DNA of 63,992 bases, counting the filler, from Candidatus Hydrogenedentota bacterium (GTDB taxonomy: Bacteria; JBFMHD01), in NCBI GenBank assembly GCA_040752395.1. It is 9 parts of 9 records of this genome, joined end to end, with 100 filler letters (N's around TTAATTAATTAA, not from the genome) between each part and the next. Parts side by side here need not be neighbours in the genome. Positions count along the whole stretch, not along the records: positions 29,863 to 35,593 come from JBFMHD010000178.1; 8 more parts are not named here. One strand, written 5' to 3'. How positions within the stretch are numbered: position 1 is the first letter of the stretch; every line of letters starts with the position of its first letter. The notes beneath the pieces are model-generated. The model ran no database searches. It had not been told where the DNA came from and was given only the letters and a program-made list of their open reading frames with translations. Positions 11,729-62,088 of this stretch are shown here, piece after piece. The position numbers and the translations under genes are program-made.

Positions 11729-11999
11729 ATGAACCCGATGGATTTTGTCGACGCTTTAAGAAAAGTAATTGTAGAAACCCTTGTACCCGAGATAAGAGAA
11801 TTAAGAGAAGATACTAACTGTAAATTTGAGGCGATACAGAAACAGATGGATGAACGATTTACAGCTATGCAGGAACAGATGGATGAACGATTTACCGCTA
11901 TGCAGAAACAGATGGATGAACGATTTACAGCTATGCAAAAACAGATGGATGAGCGGTTTGCTAAAATGGATGAGAAGTTTGAAAAGTTTGCTATTGCGT
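11729..11999 (+). CDS. Coiled-coil protein with 11-residue repeats (cut by contig end)
   Basis: (QKQMDERFTAM)n with a GGAG SD upstream. Confidence 0.7.
11837..11968 (+). repeat. 33-bp coding tandem repeat, about 4 units
   Basis: CAGAAACAGATGGATGAACGATTTACAGCTATG repeated. Confidence 0.9.
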
Positions 12000-12099
12000 N
12001 NNNNNNNNNNNNNNNNNNNNNNNNNNNNNNNNNNNNNNNNNNNTTAATTAATTAANNNNNNNNNNNNNNNNNNNNNNNNNNNNNNNNNNNNNNNNNNNN

Positions 12100-12220
12100 G
12101 GGGCTCCAGCCGGCTGTAGTCCGTAGCCTGTAGCCTGTCCTGATACCTCTCACTTCTTCCGTTATCTTGCTTCTTGCTTCTACTTGATATTATTAGAGTT
12201 ACAGCGTTTTTCAGAGGAGG
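12100..12220 (+). repeat. Modular intergenic repeat copy (modules B-C-D)
   Basis: CTCCAGCCGGCTGTAG...CTTGCTT...CTACTTGATATTATTAGAGTTACAGCGTTTTTCAGAGGAGG. Confidence 0.9.
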
Positions 12221-14112: not shown

Positions 14113-14331
14113 CTATTCTGCTGGTAAAAGCTCTTCAAGTGATTTCAGAACCTGTCGGCATTGATTCAGTCCGAGCCATATACCCTTTTTTGTTGGTTTC
14201 ATTTCGTTCGCATCGGTATAGAAAAATCTTCTAATATCTATGCCTCTTTTTTCATTAAATTCTGATTGTCGTAATACTATAGGATTTTTTGAATCCACAT
14301 TTATCACAACTTGTTTTTCAAACCCTGGCAT
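14113..14331 (-). CDS. PC4/YdbC-like ssDNA-binding protein
   Basis: Motif IDIRRFFY...MKPTKKGIWL. SD supplied by repeat module D. Confidence 0.85.
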   Translation of the reverse strand: MPGFEKQVVINVDSKNPIVLRQSEFNEKRGIDIRRFFYTDANEMKPTKKGIWLGLNQCRQVLKSLEELLPAE

Positions 14332-14340
14332 TGTTATCAC

Positions 14341-14710
14341 CTCCTCCTCTGAAAAACTTTGTAACTATAATAATATCAAGTAGAAGCAAGAAGCAAGATA
14401 ACGGAAGAAGTGAGAGGTATCAGGACAGGCTACAGGCTACGGACTACAGCCGGCTGGAGCCAAAAGCCAAAAGCCTCCTGAAAAGTCTTGAGTCTTGAGT
14501 CTCGAGTCCTGTTTTGACTCACGACTTGCGACTTGTGACTCTTTTCATATCATCTTTAGTTTTTCATCCTTTGTGTAGAGCGCAAACCGCGCTCATGAGT
14601 ACTCCTATGATAAAATGAGAAATATAGAAGACAGGGGCAGGAGGAAAAGGCATAAAGTTAAATTCAAAATTCAAAATTAAAAATTAGAAGACAGGAGACA
14701 GGAGACAGAA
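14341..14710 (-). repeat. Modular intergenic repeat, near-complete copy (F-A-B-C-D plus TTCAAAA/AGGAGAC tracts)
   Basis: Reverse complement of the 33698-34034 copy, with different unit numbers. Confidence 0.9.
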
Positions 14711-27390: not shown

Positions 27391-27460
27391 TGATACTTCT
27401 TACTTCCCACTTCTTGCTTCTACTTGATATTATTATAGTTACAAAGTTTTCCAGAGGAGG
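27391..27460 (+). repeat. Modular repeat copy (C-D only) supplying the SD of the nitrilase gene
   Basis: CTACTTGATATTATTATAGTTACAAAGTTTTCCAGAGGAGG. Confidence 0.85.
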
Positions 27461-29587: not shown

Positions 29588-29762
29588 GAGCACAAAGGCA
29601 CCTGCCTGCGCCGCACTCCGCTGCGGCAGGCAGGCAAAGGCACAGAGGCACAGAGGCACAAAGTATGAAAAGAGTCACAAGTCGCAAGTCGTGAGTCAAA
29701 ACAGGACTCGAGACTCAAGACTCAAGACTCAAGACTTTTCAGCAGGCTTTGGGCTTTTGGCT
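29588..29762 (+). repeat. Modular repeat copy (CCTGCC hairpin, E, A, start of B) at contig end
   Basis: GGCACAGA units and GTGAGTCAAAACAGGACTCGAGACTCAAGA. Confidence 0.9.
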
Positions 29763-29862
29763 NNNNNNNNNNNNNNNNNNNNNNNNNNNNNNNNNNNNNN
29801 NNNNNNTTAATTAATTAANNNNNNNNNNNNNNNNNNNNNNNNNNNNNNNNNNNNNNNNNNNN

Positions 29863-29990
29863 CCTGTTTTGACTCACGACTCTCGACTCCCGACCCCTAA
29901 TATACCCCATCCCCTATGACCCATCCCCTAATATCCTTTGTGCCTCTGTGCCTTTCCTTTAAATCTTTCAATCTTTCAATCTTTGACTTC
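29863..29990 (-). repeat. Modular repeat copy with G-run module at contig start
   Basis: Near-perfect reverse complement of 35501-35590. Confidence 0.9.
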
Positions 29991-32889: not shown

Positions 32890-33654
32890 ATGGAGATGAA
32901 CAAAGAGTATTTAGATAATATAGTGATAATAAAATGTGAAAAGATTATGGATATAAATGTGCTTAAAGATCTGGATAAAGTATTTAAAGAGTGTTTAAAT
33001 GCAAATGATATATATCTTGTTCTTGATTTAATAGATACTAAATTTCTCGATAGCATAATAGCAGGAAAAATACTGGCTATGCTTAAACTCTTCCACGCAA
33101 AAGGTGGAGATATAAAATTATTAAACCCACAATTAAATGTTATTCAGGCTTTGAAAACACTCGGCGTCATCGGATTGATTGATATCTATGACAACATTGA
33201 TGAGATAAAAAAATCATTTACTCAAAGAGAACTTGAAAAAGAGGAACTTGAGTTTATTAAAAAAGAAGTTATAAAAAAAATTTTAATTAAATATGATGGG
33301 TTATGTACTGATATAACTATCGAGGACAGATTGCAGGCTGCTATTGAAGGAAGATATGTACCTAATATTGAAAGAGACTTAAATATTGTGGATATGTTTA
33401 GCAAAAAAAAGATGGTTCTTTTTGATAATGTAGATGAGTTCTGTGAACATCTTGAAAAATATTTCAGGGCAAGAAGTCTCTCTTTTGAAGATATAAAAAA
33501 TATGAAAAATGAAATGATAAAACTTAATGAATATTACTTAAAAGCTCTTAATAAAGAGATTAACATTGAAGAGTTATATAAAATTTTTGATATTGGTAAA
33601 TTCGATGCTATAAATAGAAAACTCGAACAGTTAAAAAAAATGATTGAAGAATAA
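32890..33654 (+). CDS. STAS-domain anti-sigma-factor antagonist with C-terminal extension
   Basis: Motif LVLDLIDTKFLDS...GGDIKLLNP. Confidence 0.75.
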   Translation: MEMNKEYLDNIVIIKCEKIMDINVLKDLDKVFKECLNANDIYLVLDLIDTKFLDSIIAGKILAMLKLFHAKGGDIKLLNPQLNVIQALKTLGVIGLIDIYDNIDEIKKSFTQRELEKEELEFIKKEVIKKILIKYDGLCTDITIEDRLQAAIEGRYVPNIERDLNIVDMFSKKKMVLFDNVDEFCEHLEKYFRARSLSFEDIKNMKNEMIKLNEYYLKALNKEINIEELYKIFDIGKFDAINRKLEQLKKMIEE

Positions 33655-33676
33655 TAAAGAAATGATATAATTTTTT

Positions 33677-34034
33677 GATACTTCTTACTTTTTCGAACTA
33701 CACTATTGGGTTCTTGGGTTATTGGGTTATTGGGTTTTTGCGTTTTTGCGCTCTACACAACGTATGAAAAACTAAAGATGATATGAAAAGAGTCGTGAGT
33801 CAAAACAGGACTCGAGACTCAAGACTCAAGACTTTTCAGCAGGCTTTTGGCTTTTGTCTCCAGCCGGCTGTAGTCCGTAGCCTGTAGCCTGTCCTGATAC
33901 CTCTCACTTCTTCCGTTATCTTGCTTCTTGCTTCTTGCTTCTTGCTTCTTTCGTTATCTTTCTTTCCGTTATCTTGCTTCTTGCCTCTTGCTTCTACTTG
34001 ATATTATTAGAGTTACAATGTTTTTCAGAGGAGG
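33677..34034 (+). repeat. Most complete modular repeat copy (ATTGGGTT tract, A, B, C, D)
   Basis: All main modules in one orientation, ending in TTTTTCAGAGGAGG 5 nt before the ATG. Confidence 0.92.
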
Positions 34035-34039
34035 CTTAT

Positions 34040-34720
34040 ATGGATACCATTGATAAAGTTTTCCCATGGGAAGACCCGTCACTTGACATCTGGCAACGAT
34101 GTATTGAAACAATAAAAGGCGTGCTTTTTCAACCCGCTTCCACATTCGCTAAGATATCTCCTCAAACAGGTATAGGTAAATCATTATTATTTGCTGTTAT
34201 TTTCGGTACAATCGGGAATGTATTTGCAACAATTTATCAACTTGTTTTACAAAGTTTCAGTATGCTTGGGCCGTTTTTCGGGACCAGACCAGATATAAAG
34301 GAAAGTGTTCTCGGTTTTATCGCGATGCCAATTGTCCTTGTATTATTTATTATTATATCGCCACTTTTAGTTATGGTTGGTGTATTTATCTGGGCAGGAA
34401 TATATCATTTATTCCTTTTATTATTTCGAGCCGCAGAAGGTGGTTTTGAAGCTACAATAAAAGTTGTAGCTTATACGATGGGTTCCACGATGTTGTTTAA
34501 TATCGTTCCTTTTTGCGGTTGTATTATTGCAGGTATCTGGAGTCTCGTCTGCTACATTATAGGTTTTAAAGTTGTTCATTCTACAGATACATCAAAGGCT
34601 GTTTTTGCAGTATTGCTGCCTCTTATTATTGTATGCTGCTGTTGTATAGCAGTTATTATGATGATAGCAGGGATGGGTGCGTTTGCCGGATTTACTGCCT
34701 ATCAAGGACAAGGCTTTTAA
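34040..34720 (+). CDS. YIP1-family membrane protein
   Basis: FPWED...VLFQPASTF, GGFEATIKVVAY and five TM segments. Start reassigned to after the SD. Confidence 0.8.
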   Translation: MDTIDKVFPWEDPSLDIWQRCIETIKGVLFQPASTFAKISPQTGIGKSLLFAVIFGTIGNVFATIYQLVLQSFSMLGPFFGTRPDIKESVLGFIAMPIVLVLFIIISPLLVMVGVFIWAGIYHLFLLLFRAAEGGFEATIKVVAYTMGSTMLFNIVPFCGCIIAGIWSLVCYIIGFKVVHSTDTSKAVFAVLLPLIIVCCCCIAVIMMIAGMGAFAGFTAYQGQGF

Positions 34721-41280: not shown

Positions 41281-41420
41281 CACCTCCTCTGAAAAACGCT
41301 GTAACTCTAATAATTCGGGGTACAGGCTACGGGCTACGGACTACAGCCGGCTGGAGCCCGAAGCCCGGAGCCTGTAGCCAACATATCATCTTTAGTTTTT
41401 CATATATTGTGTAGAGCGCA
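41281..41420 (-). repeat. Modular repeat copy (partial A, B, short D) at contig end
   Basis: CCCGAATTATTAGAGTTACAGCGTTTTTCAGAGGAGG on the minus strand. Confidence 0.9.
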
Positions 41421-41902: not shown

Positions 41903-42061
41903 ATGTACTTAGCAGACCACTTTGTGCCTCTAACCACTCAGAATATGTGAAAAAATTGTAGTAAGCATCTTTAGATGCGTCTTTAAGATCGAGGTATTTA
42001 TATTATTTCTAACAAATTATTAAAATTTTAGTCATTAGTCTTTGACTTGTGACTTATGGCT

Positions 42062-42356
42062 TAGATTCAAAGATTCAAAGATTAAAAATTCAAAATTCAA
42101 AATTAGAAGTAGTGATGGTCTTTAGACCCGTAGTATAGCCGGGTTTACCCATCCATAGACAGGCACAGAGGCACAGAGGCACAAAGGCAGAAAGTTAAAT
42201 TAAAAATTCAAAATTAGGAGTTAGGAGTCAGGAGTCAGACTTCTTGCTTCTTGCCTCTTGCCTCTTTCGTTATCTTTCTTTCCGTTATCTTGCTTCTTGC
42301 TTCTTGCCTCTTGCTTCTACTTGATATCATTAGAGTTACAATGTTTTTCAGAGGAG
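42062..42356 (+). repeat. Modular repeat copy (short-unit tracts, E, C, D)
   Basis: Ends CTACTTGATATCATTAGAGTTACAATGTTTTTCAGAGGAG. Confidence 0.9.
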
Positions 42357-42361
42357 TTATT

Positions 42362-42643
42362 ATGGAATGGGTTATAACAATGATAACGCTTGTAGCAGGC
42401 TGTGTCACAATAGCCTGGTTTATCCGTGATGTAAGAAAAGAGAATAGTAAAATATTAAAATCTATGCTTGATGTCCAGAATACATCACTTGCTGTTCAGA
42501 AAACATCACTTGATGTTCAGCGAGAAGTGGTACAAATACTGGTAAAGATAGAGGAAGGACAACGAGAAGGGTTCAGAATGTTAAGTGAAGATATGACAAA
42601 ATTAGGTGCGATACTTGAAAGGGTCTCATTTGCACCCAGATAA
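42362..42643 (+). CDS. Small protein with an N-terminal TM segment and coiled coil
   Basis: MEWVITMITLVAGCVTIAWFIRD..., with its start directly after the module D SD. Confidence 0.7.
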   Translation: MEWVITMITLVAGCVTIAWFIRDVRKENSKILKSMLDVQNTSLAVQKTSLDVQREVVQILVKIEEGQREGFRMLSEDMTKLGAILERVSFAPR

Positions 42644-44052
<1,409 letters not shown>

Positions 44053-44053
44053 T

Positions 44054-44580
44054 AAGTGTGGTTTGCACTCTACACTATTGCGTTTTTGCGTTATTGGGTT
44101 ATTGGGTTATTGCGTTCTAAATTCTGGCTGTTGACTACAGATCTCATCATTCCGCATTTTTTAAAGGATGTTGGCTTCAGGCTCCGGGCTTTTGGCTCCA
44201 GCCGGCTGTAGTCCGTAGCCTGTAGCCTGCTGAAAAGTCTTGAGTCTTGAGTCCTGTTTTGACTCACGACTTACGACTCACGACTCTTTTCATATCATCT
44301 TTAGTTTTTCATCCTTTGTACCTTTGTGCCTCTGTGCCTCTTGTTTCTTCCGTTATCTTGCTTCTTGCTTCTACTTGATATTATTAGAGTTAGAATGTTT
44401 TTCGAAGGAGTCAACATGAGCGCGGTTTGCGCTCTACACAATCTATGAAAAACAGGTTTTTTTCCCTTACTTTTAACTTTTGCCTTTTAACTTTTAACTT
44501 GTCATAGGAGTTAGAAGTTAGGAGTTCGTAATAATAGATCCGAGCTTCGAGCTCCGAACTCCGAACTTTTTCAAAGGAGG
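44054..44580. repeat. Rearranged modular repeat cluster: degenerate F, B(+), A(-), E(-), C(+), D(+), F(+)
   Basis: Module A appears as CTGAAAAGTCTTGAGTC...GACTCACGAC immediately after a forward module B. Confidence 0.9.
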
Positions 44581-46502: not shown

Positions 46503-46506
46503 TATA

Positions 46507-46712
46507 CTTTTAACTTTTTAATGTTTTTCGAAAGAGTGCCCATGAGCGCGGTTTGCGCTCTACACTATTGGGTTCTTGGGTTATTGCGTTATTGCGTTTT
46601 TGCGTTATCTTGCTTCTTGCCTCTTGCTTCTTTCGTTATCTTTCTTTTTCGTTATCTTGCTTCTTGCTTCTACTTGATATCATTAGAGTTACAATGTTTT
46701 TCAGAGGAGGAG
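46507..46712 (+). repeat. Modular repeat copy (F, ATTGCGTT tract, C, D)
   Basis: Starts ATGTTTTTCGAAAGAG and ends ATGTTTTTCAGAGGAGGAG. Confidence 0.9.
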
Positions 46713-46719
46713 TACTACA

Positions 46720-47241
46720 ATGAAAAGAAATCTTACTTCTTACTTCTTACTTCTTACTTTTATAATATCCTGTGGTTCGAGTGAAGAGCGCGATTTTAAA
46801 AATGTCAAAGAAAAACTGCTTGAGCAAAAAAAAATGGGCGAGTTAGTAAAGCATGATGCTCCGGCTCCACAGCCCAGGCAACCAGTACCAAAACCACCCC
46901 AGAACAAATACACGATTTATTTAAACGGTGAATCGTACGGTCCTATAATCGCAGAAGAAGTAATCCAATGGATAAAAGAGAGACGCATCTGCCCATCAAC
47001 ATATATCTCTAAAAATAACTCTGAATATAAACCTCTCAGTTATCAGACTGAATTTTACGATATTCTTGTTGAAATCTTCCCGGAAGAAATGGGACGTGAT
47101 TCTCTGGTTTCAGAAAAACAGATAAAAAGTAGTTCGGCAACTGGCGCCAACATTGTAGAATACAGCGACAGACCATCTCAATCTCAACCGGTTATCCCAA
47201 AATCAAAAATAGTCACAGGCCCTGTTCCGCCAGACGAATAA
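46720..47241 (+). CDS. Lipoprotein with a GYF_2/DUF4339-like domain
   Basis: Lipobox IISC and the motif NGESYGPI....VIQWIKERRI. Confidence 0.65.
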   Translation: MKRNLTSYFLLLTFIISCGSSEERDFKNVKEKLLEQKKMGELVKHDAPAPQPRQPVPKPPQNKYTIYLNGESYGPIIAEEVIQWIKERRICPSTYISKNNSEYKPLSYQTEFYDILVEIFPEEMGRDSLVSEKQIKSSSATGANIVEYSDRPSQSQPVIPKSKIVTGPVPPDE

Positions 47242-61869: not shown

Positions 61870-62088
61870 CCTCCTCTGAAAAACGTTGTAACTCTAATAA
61901 TATCAAGTAGAAGCAAGAAGCAAGATAACGGAAGAAGTGAGAGGTGTCAGGACGGGCTACAGGCTACAGGCTACGGACTACGGCCGGCTGGAGCCAAAAG
62001 CCAAAAGCCTGCTGAAAAGTCTTGAGTCTTGAGTCTTGAGTCTTGAGTCCTGTTTTGACTCACGACTCTTTTCATATCATCTTTAGTT
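61870..62088 (-). repeat. Modular repeat copy (A-B-C-D) supplying the SD of rho; runs to contig end
   Basis: CTACTTGATATTATTAGAGTTACAACGTTTTTCAGAGGAGG on the minus strand. Confidence 0.92.

Follow-up and report, generated by a model that had tools for sequence, protein, structure and literature searches.

A dispersed polar repeat family whose 3' module probably serves as the ribosome-binding site of unrelated genes in a Candidatus Hydrogenedentota genome

What fills the spacer in front of the Yip1 gene in a draft genome of a Candidatus Hydrogenedentota bacterium (GCA_040752395.1; 349 contigs, 2.84 Mb, 34.8% G+C, 93.8% complete), and why does related sequence stand before so many other genes of this organism? 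The locus lies in a stretch of 63,992 bases (hereafter the window) that joins contigs C82-C90 and others with runs of N; because its parts are separate contigs and not contiguous DNA, gene neighborhoods across the N joins carry no meaning. At this locus the entire spacer is occupied by a composite of short repeat modules, the last of which, module D, contains a Shine-Dalgarno (SD) site and stops a few nucleotides (nt) before the start codon. The best explanation of our results is that the composite represents a lineage-specific, non-autonomous polar mosaic repeat that takes the place of entire intergenic sequences, starting at the stop codon of a gene and reaching as far as the ribosome-binding site (RBS) of its downstream neighbor, and we consider it rather probable that this is a real polar family whose 3' module is an RBS in use.

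The composite at the Yip1 locus comprises, in order, octamer arrays, two imperfect hairpins (modules A and B), a pyrimidine tract (module C) and module D (Table 1). All of these stood where a preliminary description of the window had placed them, confirming at 33655-34039 the dispersed modular family that it had proposed, and Tandem Repeats Finder saw in the window the tracts that had been named along with them (AGGCACAG, TATTGGGT, ATTCAAA, AGGAGAC and AAAGATTC). A module scan of the window returned 20 clusters, 14 of them composite, in which the order A>B>C>D was always kept, in agreement with the earlier estimate of about 16 intergenic copies. Matches to D in the window numbered nine with a 22-mer (at most three mismatches) and 12 with a looser 14-mer, and none of 100 dinucleotide shuffles gave any match to the 22-mer. 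Genome-wide, we found about 220-228 copies of module A and 329 of module B. The 52 full A-B-C-D elements differ in length by steps of 7 nt; over the stretch that begins with the stem module and closes with GAGGAG, conservation of their consensus is 90-99%. Exact tandem arrays in the genome number 927 for period 7, 178 for period 8, 81 for period 6 and 3 for period 9, the most frequent heptamer array being AAGAAGC/CTTGCTT (273 arrays). Repeats make up at least 6% of the genome (14-mers that occur at least eight times cover 6.1% of the assembly) and 305 of the 698 contig ends fall in them; the assembly is highly fragmented because the repeat family fills contig ends.

Hairpins A and B, which are 50-55 nt each and made of repeats, fold moderately well as RNA (A: -17.1 kcal/mol, z -2.05; B: z -2.05), the D region is unstructured (z -0.12), and the element taken whole folds no better than its shuffles (z +0.33). 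The copy numbers of the two arms of A vary independently (r = 0.01, n = 177), and compensatory changes are nearly absent, with at most 3 of 221 copies at any of its 11 inner pairs; the pair counts for B have n = 600 since its palindromic core puts every copy on both strands. Because the arm numbers are uncorrelated and compensatory changes nearly absent, the heptamer arrays look like slippage products and not like a selected RNA fold, even though the near-absence of compensatory change, taken by itself, says nothing either way on RNA structure. The earlier suggestion that arms of variable number tune expression therefore finds no support; the variation looks like plain replication slippage.

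We counted copies of D in the assembly as matches to the 22-mer (326 copies), as matches to the 14-mer with at most one mismatch (362 copies), or by anchoring on the SD-free half of the module (371 copies). A start codon, counted if it opened an open reading frame (ORF) of at least 60 amino acids or one running off the contig, follows within 2-15 nt in 251 of the 326 copies (77%), in comparison to 360 of 5000 random positions (7%) and 312 of 1616 other GGAGG sites. With called genes instead, 248 of the 362 copies precede a gene and only one lies inside an ORF of at least 150 amino acids. The placement of D is thus non-random genome-wide, in line with the preliminary description, which had taken D to supply the RBS of unrelated genes including rho. 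When the 371 copies were aligned on their anchor, ATTATTAGAGTTACAATG (D1), the next 13 bases, TTTTTCAGAGGAG (D2), proved 83-99% conserved (307-367 of 371), and after GAGGAG the information content fell from 1.5 to 0.3 bits within one position. Because homology ends so sharply after GAGGAG, the SD site is a component of the repeat itself and not a conserved neighbor that it targets. D2 lies within 40 nt of the start of 240 of the 2181 genes of at least 100 amino acids (11%); the distance from GGAG to the start codon peaks at 5-8 nt in genes with D and at 6-9 nt in genes without it. Seen from the SD side, TTTTTCA precedes 194 of the 266 GAGGAG-type sites of the genome.

The constancy of the 3' end of D is matched by variety at its 5' side. 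In C-type copies (at least 205) CTTGCTTCTACTTGAT is joined to ATTATTAGAG, which creates the motif TGATATTAT; in B-type copies (at least 99) GTAGCCTGTACCCCGA is joined to ATTATTAGAG, giving GAATTAT without TGATATTAT. Homology to the D consensus extends over discrete lengths of 31, 48, 54-55, 58, 63, 75 or 81 nt, and a large class retains 11-13 nt only, with TTTTTCAGAGGAG directly after other heptamer arrays. In genes with short spacers, D is shortened stepwise at its 5' side down to 13 nt and its 3' end stays constant.

The family is polar with respect to genes as well. Reading from the upstream stop codon to the downstream start codon, the modules follow the order G-H-E-K-F/T-A-B-C-D, and every module is oriented relative to the flanking genes. 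The median distance from the upstream stop ascends from G (22 nt) through H, E, K, F/T, J, A and B/C to D (220 nt), and D in turn lies a median of 9 nt from the downstream start. On the upstream side, A faces a stop codon 147 times and a start codon 16 times, and D faces a stop 206 times and a start 23 times. Among spacers of at least 100 nt, D stands before 107 of 673 co-directional genes vs. 11 of 230 divergent genes (odds ratio 3.8, p = 4e-6). Composites even interrupt a conserved gene cluster: on contig C13 (2320-16712) they precede rplK, rplL, rpoB and rpoC within rplKAJL-rpoBC, and about 460 nt, with modules F/T, A, B, C and D, separate the ORFs of rpoB and rpoC. Some upstream genes end inside element sequence, indicating that the repeats also rewrite gene 3' ends; real genes of this kind are a 681-amino-acid gene on contig C119, which ends in a C tract, and a 691-amino-acid gene on contig C297, which ends in a stem module. 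Separately, we observed that spurious ORFs of 50-72 amino acids open within the repeat arrays and corrupt gene calls.

Which genes does D lead? We ran Pfam on 56 D-led proteins from 20 stretches that were picked for having many D-led genes, and 46 of the 56 gave a match. They include RpoB, RpoC, L11, S9, EF-Tu, RecA, FtsA, DnaB, DnaX, GatB, TpiA, Pgi and AccD, together with a sulfatase, a PilZ protein, bacterial microcompartment (BMC) shell proteins and others, so that D-led genes are unrelated and share no functional theme. In 19 of the 56 proteins the match begins at profile position 1-2 by residue 10, indicating that the called starts are right.

With the anatomy, copy number, placement, polarity and gene classes of the family established, we turn to what its parts may do. 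Use of D2 as an RBS is, going by sequence, very probable. It is the best supported of the proposed roles because D2 is the only SD site before essential single-copy genes, its spacing to the start codon is normal, the region is open and a U-run precedes it. On the mRNA, D2 (UUUUUCAGAGGAG) would form an unstructured U-rich leader followed by a strong SD, and would serve as the initiation region for about 11% of genes. The heptamer and octamer arrays with the imperfect hairpins A and B would be slippage-prone filler, which at most may punctuate transcription or mRNA decay between co-directional genes. Two observations pull the other way: no ORF follows 75 of the 326 D copies, and D1 and the modules at its sides share the same level of identity (90-99%). 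Since its flanks are equally conserved, recency or homogenisation accounts for the high identity of D1, which is no evidence of function.

In addition to the RBS, D may carry a weak, -35-independent promoter in its D1 half, which in C-type copies would be the TG-extended -10 motif TGATATTAT; on the claim that D1 acts as a promoter, as far as sequence allows a judgement, we lean slightly to the negative. Two tRNA-Pro genes are directly abutted by TTGATATTATTAAAATTACA(A)T, which in a shorter form also abuts a third (C5 8806-8882, C304 3564-3639 and C97 3600-3677). This sequence is the promoter-like half of D without the SD half, and TGATATTAT lies about 12 nt upstream of two tRNA-Pro genes; other tRNA genes have ordinary TTGACA / TATAAT-type promoters. 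Since a tRNA gene needs a promoter and no SD, these copies hint at promoter activity, and the sequence upstream of tRNA-Pro could be an ancestral promoter that gave rise to D1. Several results nevertheless tell against a promoter in D. A consensus promoter scan did not call D and gave a better sigma-70 match (TTGAAG-16-TATAAT with TG, 10 of 12 positions) at 33644-33671, a site at the composite's 5' edge that overlaps the preceding gene's stop codon, and on this ground the composite could be a long 5' untranslated region (UTR). D is also depleted in divergent spacers, where a promoter is obligatory. Divergent contexts were equally frequent among C-type (16/129) and B-type copies (7/68; p = 0.82), and because both types share contexts though the B-type lacks the TG motif, there is no support for a type-specific promoter.

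These results lead to an alternative in which D has no promoter at all and the composite is a long structured 5' UTR or intercistronic spacer, whose transcription would be driven by a 5'-edge promoter or come from the preceding gene. A and B would then influence how the mRNA is processed or how stable it is, like REP/BIME, ERIC and Correia elements, and D would only restore an accessible RBS. Beyond the sigma-70 match at the 5' edge, this account fits the enrichment of the family in co-directional spacers and within conserved operons (rpoB-rpoC, for example), the absence of the TG -10 from B-type copies, the open D next to moderately folded A and B (z about -2), and D-only copies in spacers of 25-42 nt that leave no room for a promoter. 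A structured leader is harder to reconcile with an element that as a whole does not fold beyond its shuffles, with uncorrelated A arm lengths, and with the lack of compensatory changes that would back an RNA structure; moreover, the D1-like sequence directly before the tRNA-Pro genes is promoter-like. We consider this alternative rather unlikely.

How the family spread is a separate question from what it does. The preliminary description had seen no mobilizing enzyme in the window; we likewise found none that was obvious there, nor in the assembled genome, where searches for Y1_Tnp/RAYT (PF01797), RVT_1, the TnpB zinc ribbon and rve gave no match in the 93.8%-complete sequence. As a control, the Y1/RAYT search was positive in 6 of 14 named genomes. 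DDE_Tnp_1 gave three matches, on contigs that have none of the family modules except one loose C-tract match on one of them. At two tRNA genes, tRNA-Ser(tga) and tRNA-Tyr (Table 1), a full B-type D lies upstream and its terminal GGAG is nucleotides 1-4 of the tRNA, in the acceptor stem; upstream of tRNA-Tyr, the whole gap to the tRNA before it is taken up by a composite of about 310 nt. ARAGORN found 43 RNA genes (42 tRNAs and one tmRNA), of which only 4 begin with GGAG, and a hypergeometric estimate for both D copies falling on such genes is p = 0.007.

We think that spread probably proceeded by homology-driven copying between spacers (gene conversion or template switching) and not by a dedicated transposase, with the copied tract anchored on its right at the GGAG of a resident SD site. 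Homology-driven spacer replacement is favored over transposition because the 3' end is constant, the 5' extent is variable, the element is anchored at both gene ends and D is fused to tRNAs. Anchoring at GGAG specifically is, from the sequence, a plausible proposal that we hold only tentatively. It is more doubtful still that the SD motif itself was the recombination anchor through which copy-and-paste overwrote spacers from stop codon to GGAG genome-wide, standardizing the initiation regions, and perhaps the promoters, of over a tenth of all genes; on that speculative reading, copying would even reach tRNA genes whose first bases are GGAG, giving concerted evolution of expression signals without a transposase. 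Some points count against spread by copying. The tRNA argument rests on two loci, and the 6% of the genome that is unassembled could harbor a transposase. In addition, 162 adjacent D pairs on the same contig were no more alike than random pairs (0.633 vs. 0.670), although the assembly may bias this comparison against nearby identical copies; as neighboring copies show no excess similarity, nothing here points to local conversion.

A selfish non-autonomous mobile element, MITE- or REPIN-like, could have produced much of the same pattern. It would be moved in trans by an unassembled or unrecognised transposase and insert preferentially just 5' of GGAG, and its RBS 'function' would merely be the condition under which copies survive. 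Hundreds of near-identical D copies with a very sharp 3' end are what such an element would leave, and so are 5'-shortened copies, the 75 orphan copies among 326, the repeat load of the genome and its contig ends, and the fusion of D to GGAG at two tRNA genes, where an SD is useless. Yet terminal inverted repeats are lacking, no mirror copy of D stands at the composite's 5' end, and the enzyme searches offer no candidate, with no Y1/RAYT, reverse transcriptase (RT), TnpB or rve in the assembly and DDE contigs that are bare of modules apart from the loose C-tract match. The modules are also optional yet strictly collinear, and anchored at both gene ends, which fits spacer replacement better. 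We therefore regard mobility of this kind as unlikely.

It is less likely again that the shared leader is an operator through which a trans-acting factor (CsrA, a cold-shock protein, S1 or a small RNA), binding D or the pyrimidine heptamers just upstream, sets the translation of about 300 mRNAs together. Such a factor would find the SD of about 11% of genes adjoined by one and the same leader, at least 13-31 nt long, with pyrimidine-rich heptamers (CTTGCTT, ACTTCTT and AACTTTT) on the sense strand directly upstream, and the genome encodes one CSD protein and one CsrA. The same idea has been put forward for TAACTGA repeats, and CspB is described as binding T-rich heptamers, one protein per heptamer, in the part of the source considered here (PMC4679880). 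However, D-led genes range from RNA polymerase to sulfatase and pilus genes without a theme, and the identity of D is no higher than that of modules with no plausible operator role. D also holds a single GGA, whereas CsrA sites are usually paired, according to that part of the same source (PMC4679880). No factor or antisense partner was identified in our analysis, in which nothing links CsrA or the CSD protein to D. Finally, chimeric joins or collapsed repeats in a short-read bin are an extremely improbable origin of the pattern, in spite of a 349-contig draft in which 305 of 698 ends fall in repeats and 130 of 326 D copies have a contig end within 400 nt, since the other 196 are flanked by unique sequence on either side and no contig end comes closer than 400 nt to them, the 31-nt D core abuts unique coding sequence with a Pfam-confirmed start, and mis-joins could swap the pairing of upstream genes and elements but not create D-gene junctions.

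To what extent is the family specific to this lineage? The D pattern (at most two mismatches) was absent from all 40 other genomes compared; the source genome is the only member of its phylum among the genomes compared and the 40 others are its kin at domain level only. Its Rho is 60-74% identical to Rho from many phyla and gives no phylogenetic placement. A metagenome scan with D gave three matches, two of them the same coding locus, and we read all three as chance. On metagenome contig L087 (191-211) we noted a 22-nt identity to D2 and part of D1, 8 nt before an ORF start; as a member of the family it was rejected as chance, since no other module accompanies it and the contig comes from an unrelated organism (best tblastx identity to the source genome 40%). 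The family had been called unrecognised, and this held in every collection that we searched. At gathering score, the single Rfam match in the window was a tRNA, and nothing in the repeat family matched; in E-value mode over 33640-34060 it returned only a sub-threshold miRNA model (22 bits vs. a gathering score of 60), which we take as chance. Phage records gave zero matches to the element, among plasmids only a Vibrio record matched, over 45 nt (13% of the query) within an octamer tract, and our literature search found no published description of this repeat family.

Of repeats described elsewhere, REP2 of Neisseria is the closest known concept, and a repeat that brings a promoter and an RBS is thus already in print. 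REP2 and the IR-A/IR-B elements of Borrelia plasmids have no terminal inverted repeats and carry two 5' stem-loops followed by promoter, RBS and ATG; they stand immediately upstream of unrelated ORFs, and how they multiply is unknown (PMC3184786). REP2 itself measures 120-150 bp with the ATG included, and its 23-26 copies mark a contact-induced regulon (PMC3184786). The family described here resembles it in standing directly upstream of ORFs with its RBS (251 of 326 copies 2-15 nt before a start, the SD in fixed register), in placing hairpins A and B upstream of C and D with the -10-like motif and SD after them, and in lacking terminal inverted repeats. Unlike REP2, its homology stops before the start codon and leaves a spacer of 2-15 nt that is variable and unique to each locus. 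It is built of heptamer and octamer arrays and runs polar from stop to start, and with about 360 D ends at about 11% of genes it follows no regulon theme, the comparison being one of descriptions. Where REP2 has a promoter, this family has a TG-extended -10 in C-type copies only, which the consensus scan did not call.

Heptamers near gene starts have a precedent in the TAACTGA direct repeats of marine Beggiatoaceae, some Cyanobacteria and Bacteroidetes, which in the portion of that report drawn on here form forward arrays a few nt from the starts of unrelated, partly essential genes, with no mobilizing mechanism evident and a translational role proposed (PMC4679880). By the same account TAACTGA repeats replace the SD, so that most such genes have none, whereas here a 31-nt SD module lies between the heptamers and the start (PMC4679880); in the source genome, TAACTGA is missing from the 14 most frequent heptamer arrays. 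Heptamer simple sequence repeats (cyanobacterial STRR; GGGAATC / GGGGA(C/T)T of Xanthomonas and Nostoc) share the intergenic excess of period 7, which the section of the source used here ascribes to polymerase slippage; as presented there, they are single-motif arrays mostly near gene 3' ends and not ordered mosaics with an SD module (PMC4692102).

Modular composites with variable internal units, no transposase of their own and effects on neighboring genes are known as BOX in Streptococcus pneumoniae and S. suis and as BIMEs in Escherichia coli, as outlined in the part of the report that we use (PMC3049150). As portrayed there, BOX is bounded by boxA and boxC, which pair with each other, is not anchored at starts and has no RBS end, unlike this family. 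BIMEs accompany REP units and RAYT, and no RAYT was found in the source genome; a REP/BIME/REPIN unit is moreover a short (about 20-40 nt) GC-rich imperfect palindrome, whereas we see heptamer and octamer arrays with a non-palindromic 31-nt module. A MITE has terminal inverted repeats; here there are none, and a D in minus orientation leading to a D in plus orientation (D-...D+) is not among the common module strings of 948 clusters. For the way in which the family could work and spread, the PeSL (promoter-early stem-loop) cassettes of T4-type phages offer the closest model, by analogy: as far as the part of the source used here describes them, these are small repeated cassettes between co-directional genes that combine stem-loop terminators with promoters, their copies recombine and shuffle genes, and their promoter and terminator activity was demonstrated experimentally (PMC2839356). 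Within that description they are phage elements without an SD-terminal module or heptamer arrays, unlike this family. MIRU are 40-100 bp, lie in operons and have ORF ends that overlap the stop or start codons of their neighbors; composites of this family lie in conserved operons and are entered by some upstream ORFs, while D stops 2-15 nt short of the start codon and does not overlap it.

The remaining copies in the window are collected in Table 1. Pfam identified CN_hydrolase, Yip1, TadE, Rho and PC4 among the genes that follow D, and the gene starts named in the preliminary description are confirmed, that of rho being a TTG; for PC4 either of two codons may be the start, and the D copy at 12199-12220 precedes no ORF. 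In a tad-like cluster, the co-directional genes at 42362, 42934, 44583 and 46720 each have a composite upstream. In the composite before the third of these, an internal variant, D', ends at 44410 and is followed by a GAGCGCG..GCGCTC stem module. At 44411-44440 of the window, and at about a dozen other loci across the genome, such D' variants (TTTTTCGAAGGAG) are followed, 5 nt on, by ATGAGCGCG(G)TTTGCGCTCTACAC, a small GC stem. A mini-ORF of 16 codons (ATGAGCGCG...) after the internal D' was considered as a leader peptide and rejected; we read it instead as the junction with the next sub-element. The TadE-like ORF (42934-44052) itself contains a long imperfect hexamer/30-mer array (CTGGAA-like, about 37 units, 43373-43593), which presumably encodes a low-complexity Gly/Thr-rich stretch. 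Elsewhere, a 33-nt unit repeated 3.7 times (11837-11959) lies in frame within a 108-amino-acid ORF (11729-12055) at the end of contig C83, and the D-led gene at 14113-14340 (minus strand) encodes a small bacterial homologue of the eukaryotic transcriptional coactivator PC4 (PF02229, E = 7e-11).

Table 1. Composite elements, modules and contig joins; positions are those of the window unless a contig is named.
Feature	Position	Strand	Remarks
Complete composite element	33655-34039	+	Occupies all of the spacer between the STAS-domain gene, whose stop codon ends at 33654, and the Yip1 ATG at 34040
Octamer arrays, modules F/f/T	33704-33751	+	TATTGGGT / TCTTGGGT / TTTTGCGT
Module A, imperfect hairpin	33785-33837	+	GTGAGTC / GACTCAA heptamers, loop AAAACAG
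Module B	33842-33891	+	Heptamer arms (GGCTTTT.. / GTAGCCT..) flanking palindrome CAGCCGGCTG
Module C, pyrimidine heptamer tract	33920-33995	+	(CTTGCTT)n
TG-extended -10-like motif of C-type D copies	33999-34007	+	TGATATTAT; candidate promoter
Module D core, 31 nt	34003-34033	+	ATTATTAGAGTTACAATGTTTTTCAGAGGAG; homology stops at 34033, 6 nt before the ATG
D1	34003-34020	+	ATTATTAGAGTTACAATG; half without SD site
D2	34021-34033	+	TTTTTCAGAGGAG; contains SD site
B-C-D element	12106-12219	+	Start of contig C84; orphan, no ORF after it
Composite H-A-B-C-D	14344-14699	-	Before PC4-like gene (GTG 14340 or ATG 14331)
D module alone	27420-27459	+	Before carbon-nitrogen hydrolase (nitrilase-type) gene, ATG 27471
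D-less composite (e E A E' e' G' g')	29636-29976	.	Between convergent genes; G octamers face the stop of the minus-strand gene
B-type D	41284-41354	-	Before 40-amino-acid ORF, ATG 41267
Composite G, E, K, C, D	42061-42356	+	Before 93-amino-acid ORF starting at 42362
Composite G, K, E, A, B, B-type D	42644-42922	+	From upstream stop 42643 to TadE-like gene, ATG 42934
Composite with internal D' and terminal D2 variant TTTTTCAAAGGAG	44076-44579	+	3 nt before Tad/TadG-like gene (44583)
Composite J, F/T, C, D	46505-46709	+	Before ORF starting at 46720
Composite A-B-C-D	61871-62061	-	Before rho, TTG start 61861
tRNA-Ser(tga) with D-fused GGAG	contig C28, 176-267		
tRNA-Tyr with D-fused GGAG	contig C175, 3078-3162		
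Paired runs of N at contig joins	5969-6068, 12000-12099, 18016-18115, 23919-24018, 29763-29862, 35594-35693, 41421-41520, 62089-62188		

If D works as we propose, one standard part has replaced the individual RBSs, and possibly the promoters, of about 11% of the genes of this organism, including core genes of transcription, translation, replication and recombination (rpoB, rpoC, tuf, recA and rho). The genome would then be a natural experiment in standardizing expression signals, and D a candidate portable expression part for a phylum without a cultured member. The family bears on the question that Delihas raised for REP2, namely how repeats that combine a promoter with an RBS originate and multiply (PMC3184786), and its sharp GGAG boundary together with the tRNA fusions offers a concrete, testable mechanism. 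Scale, stop-to-start polarity and lineage set the family apart as one of considerable interest.

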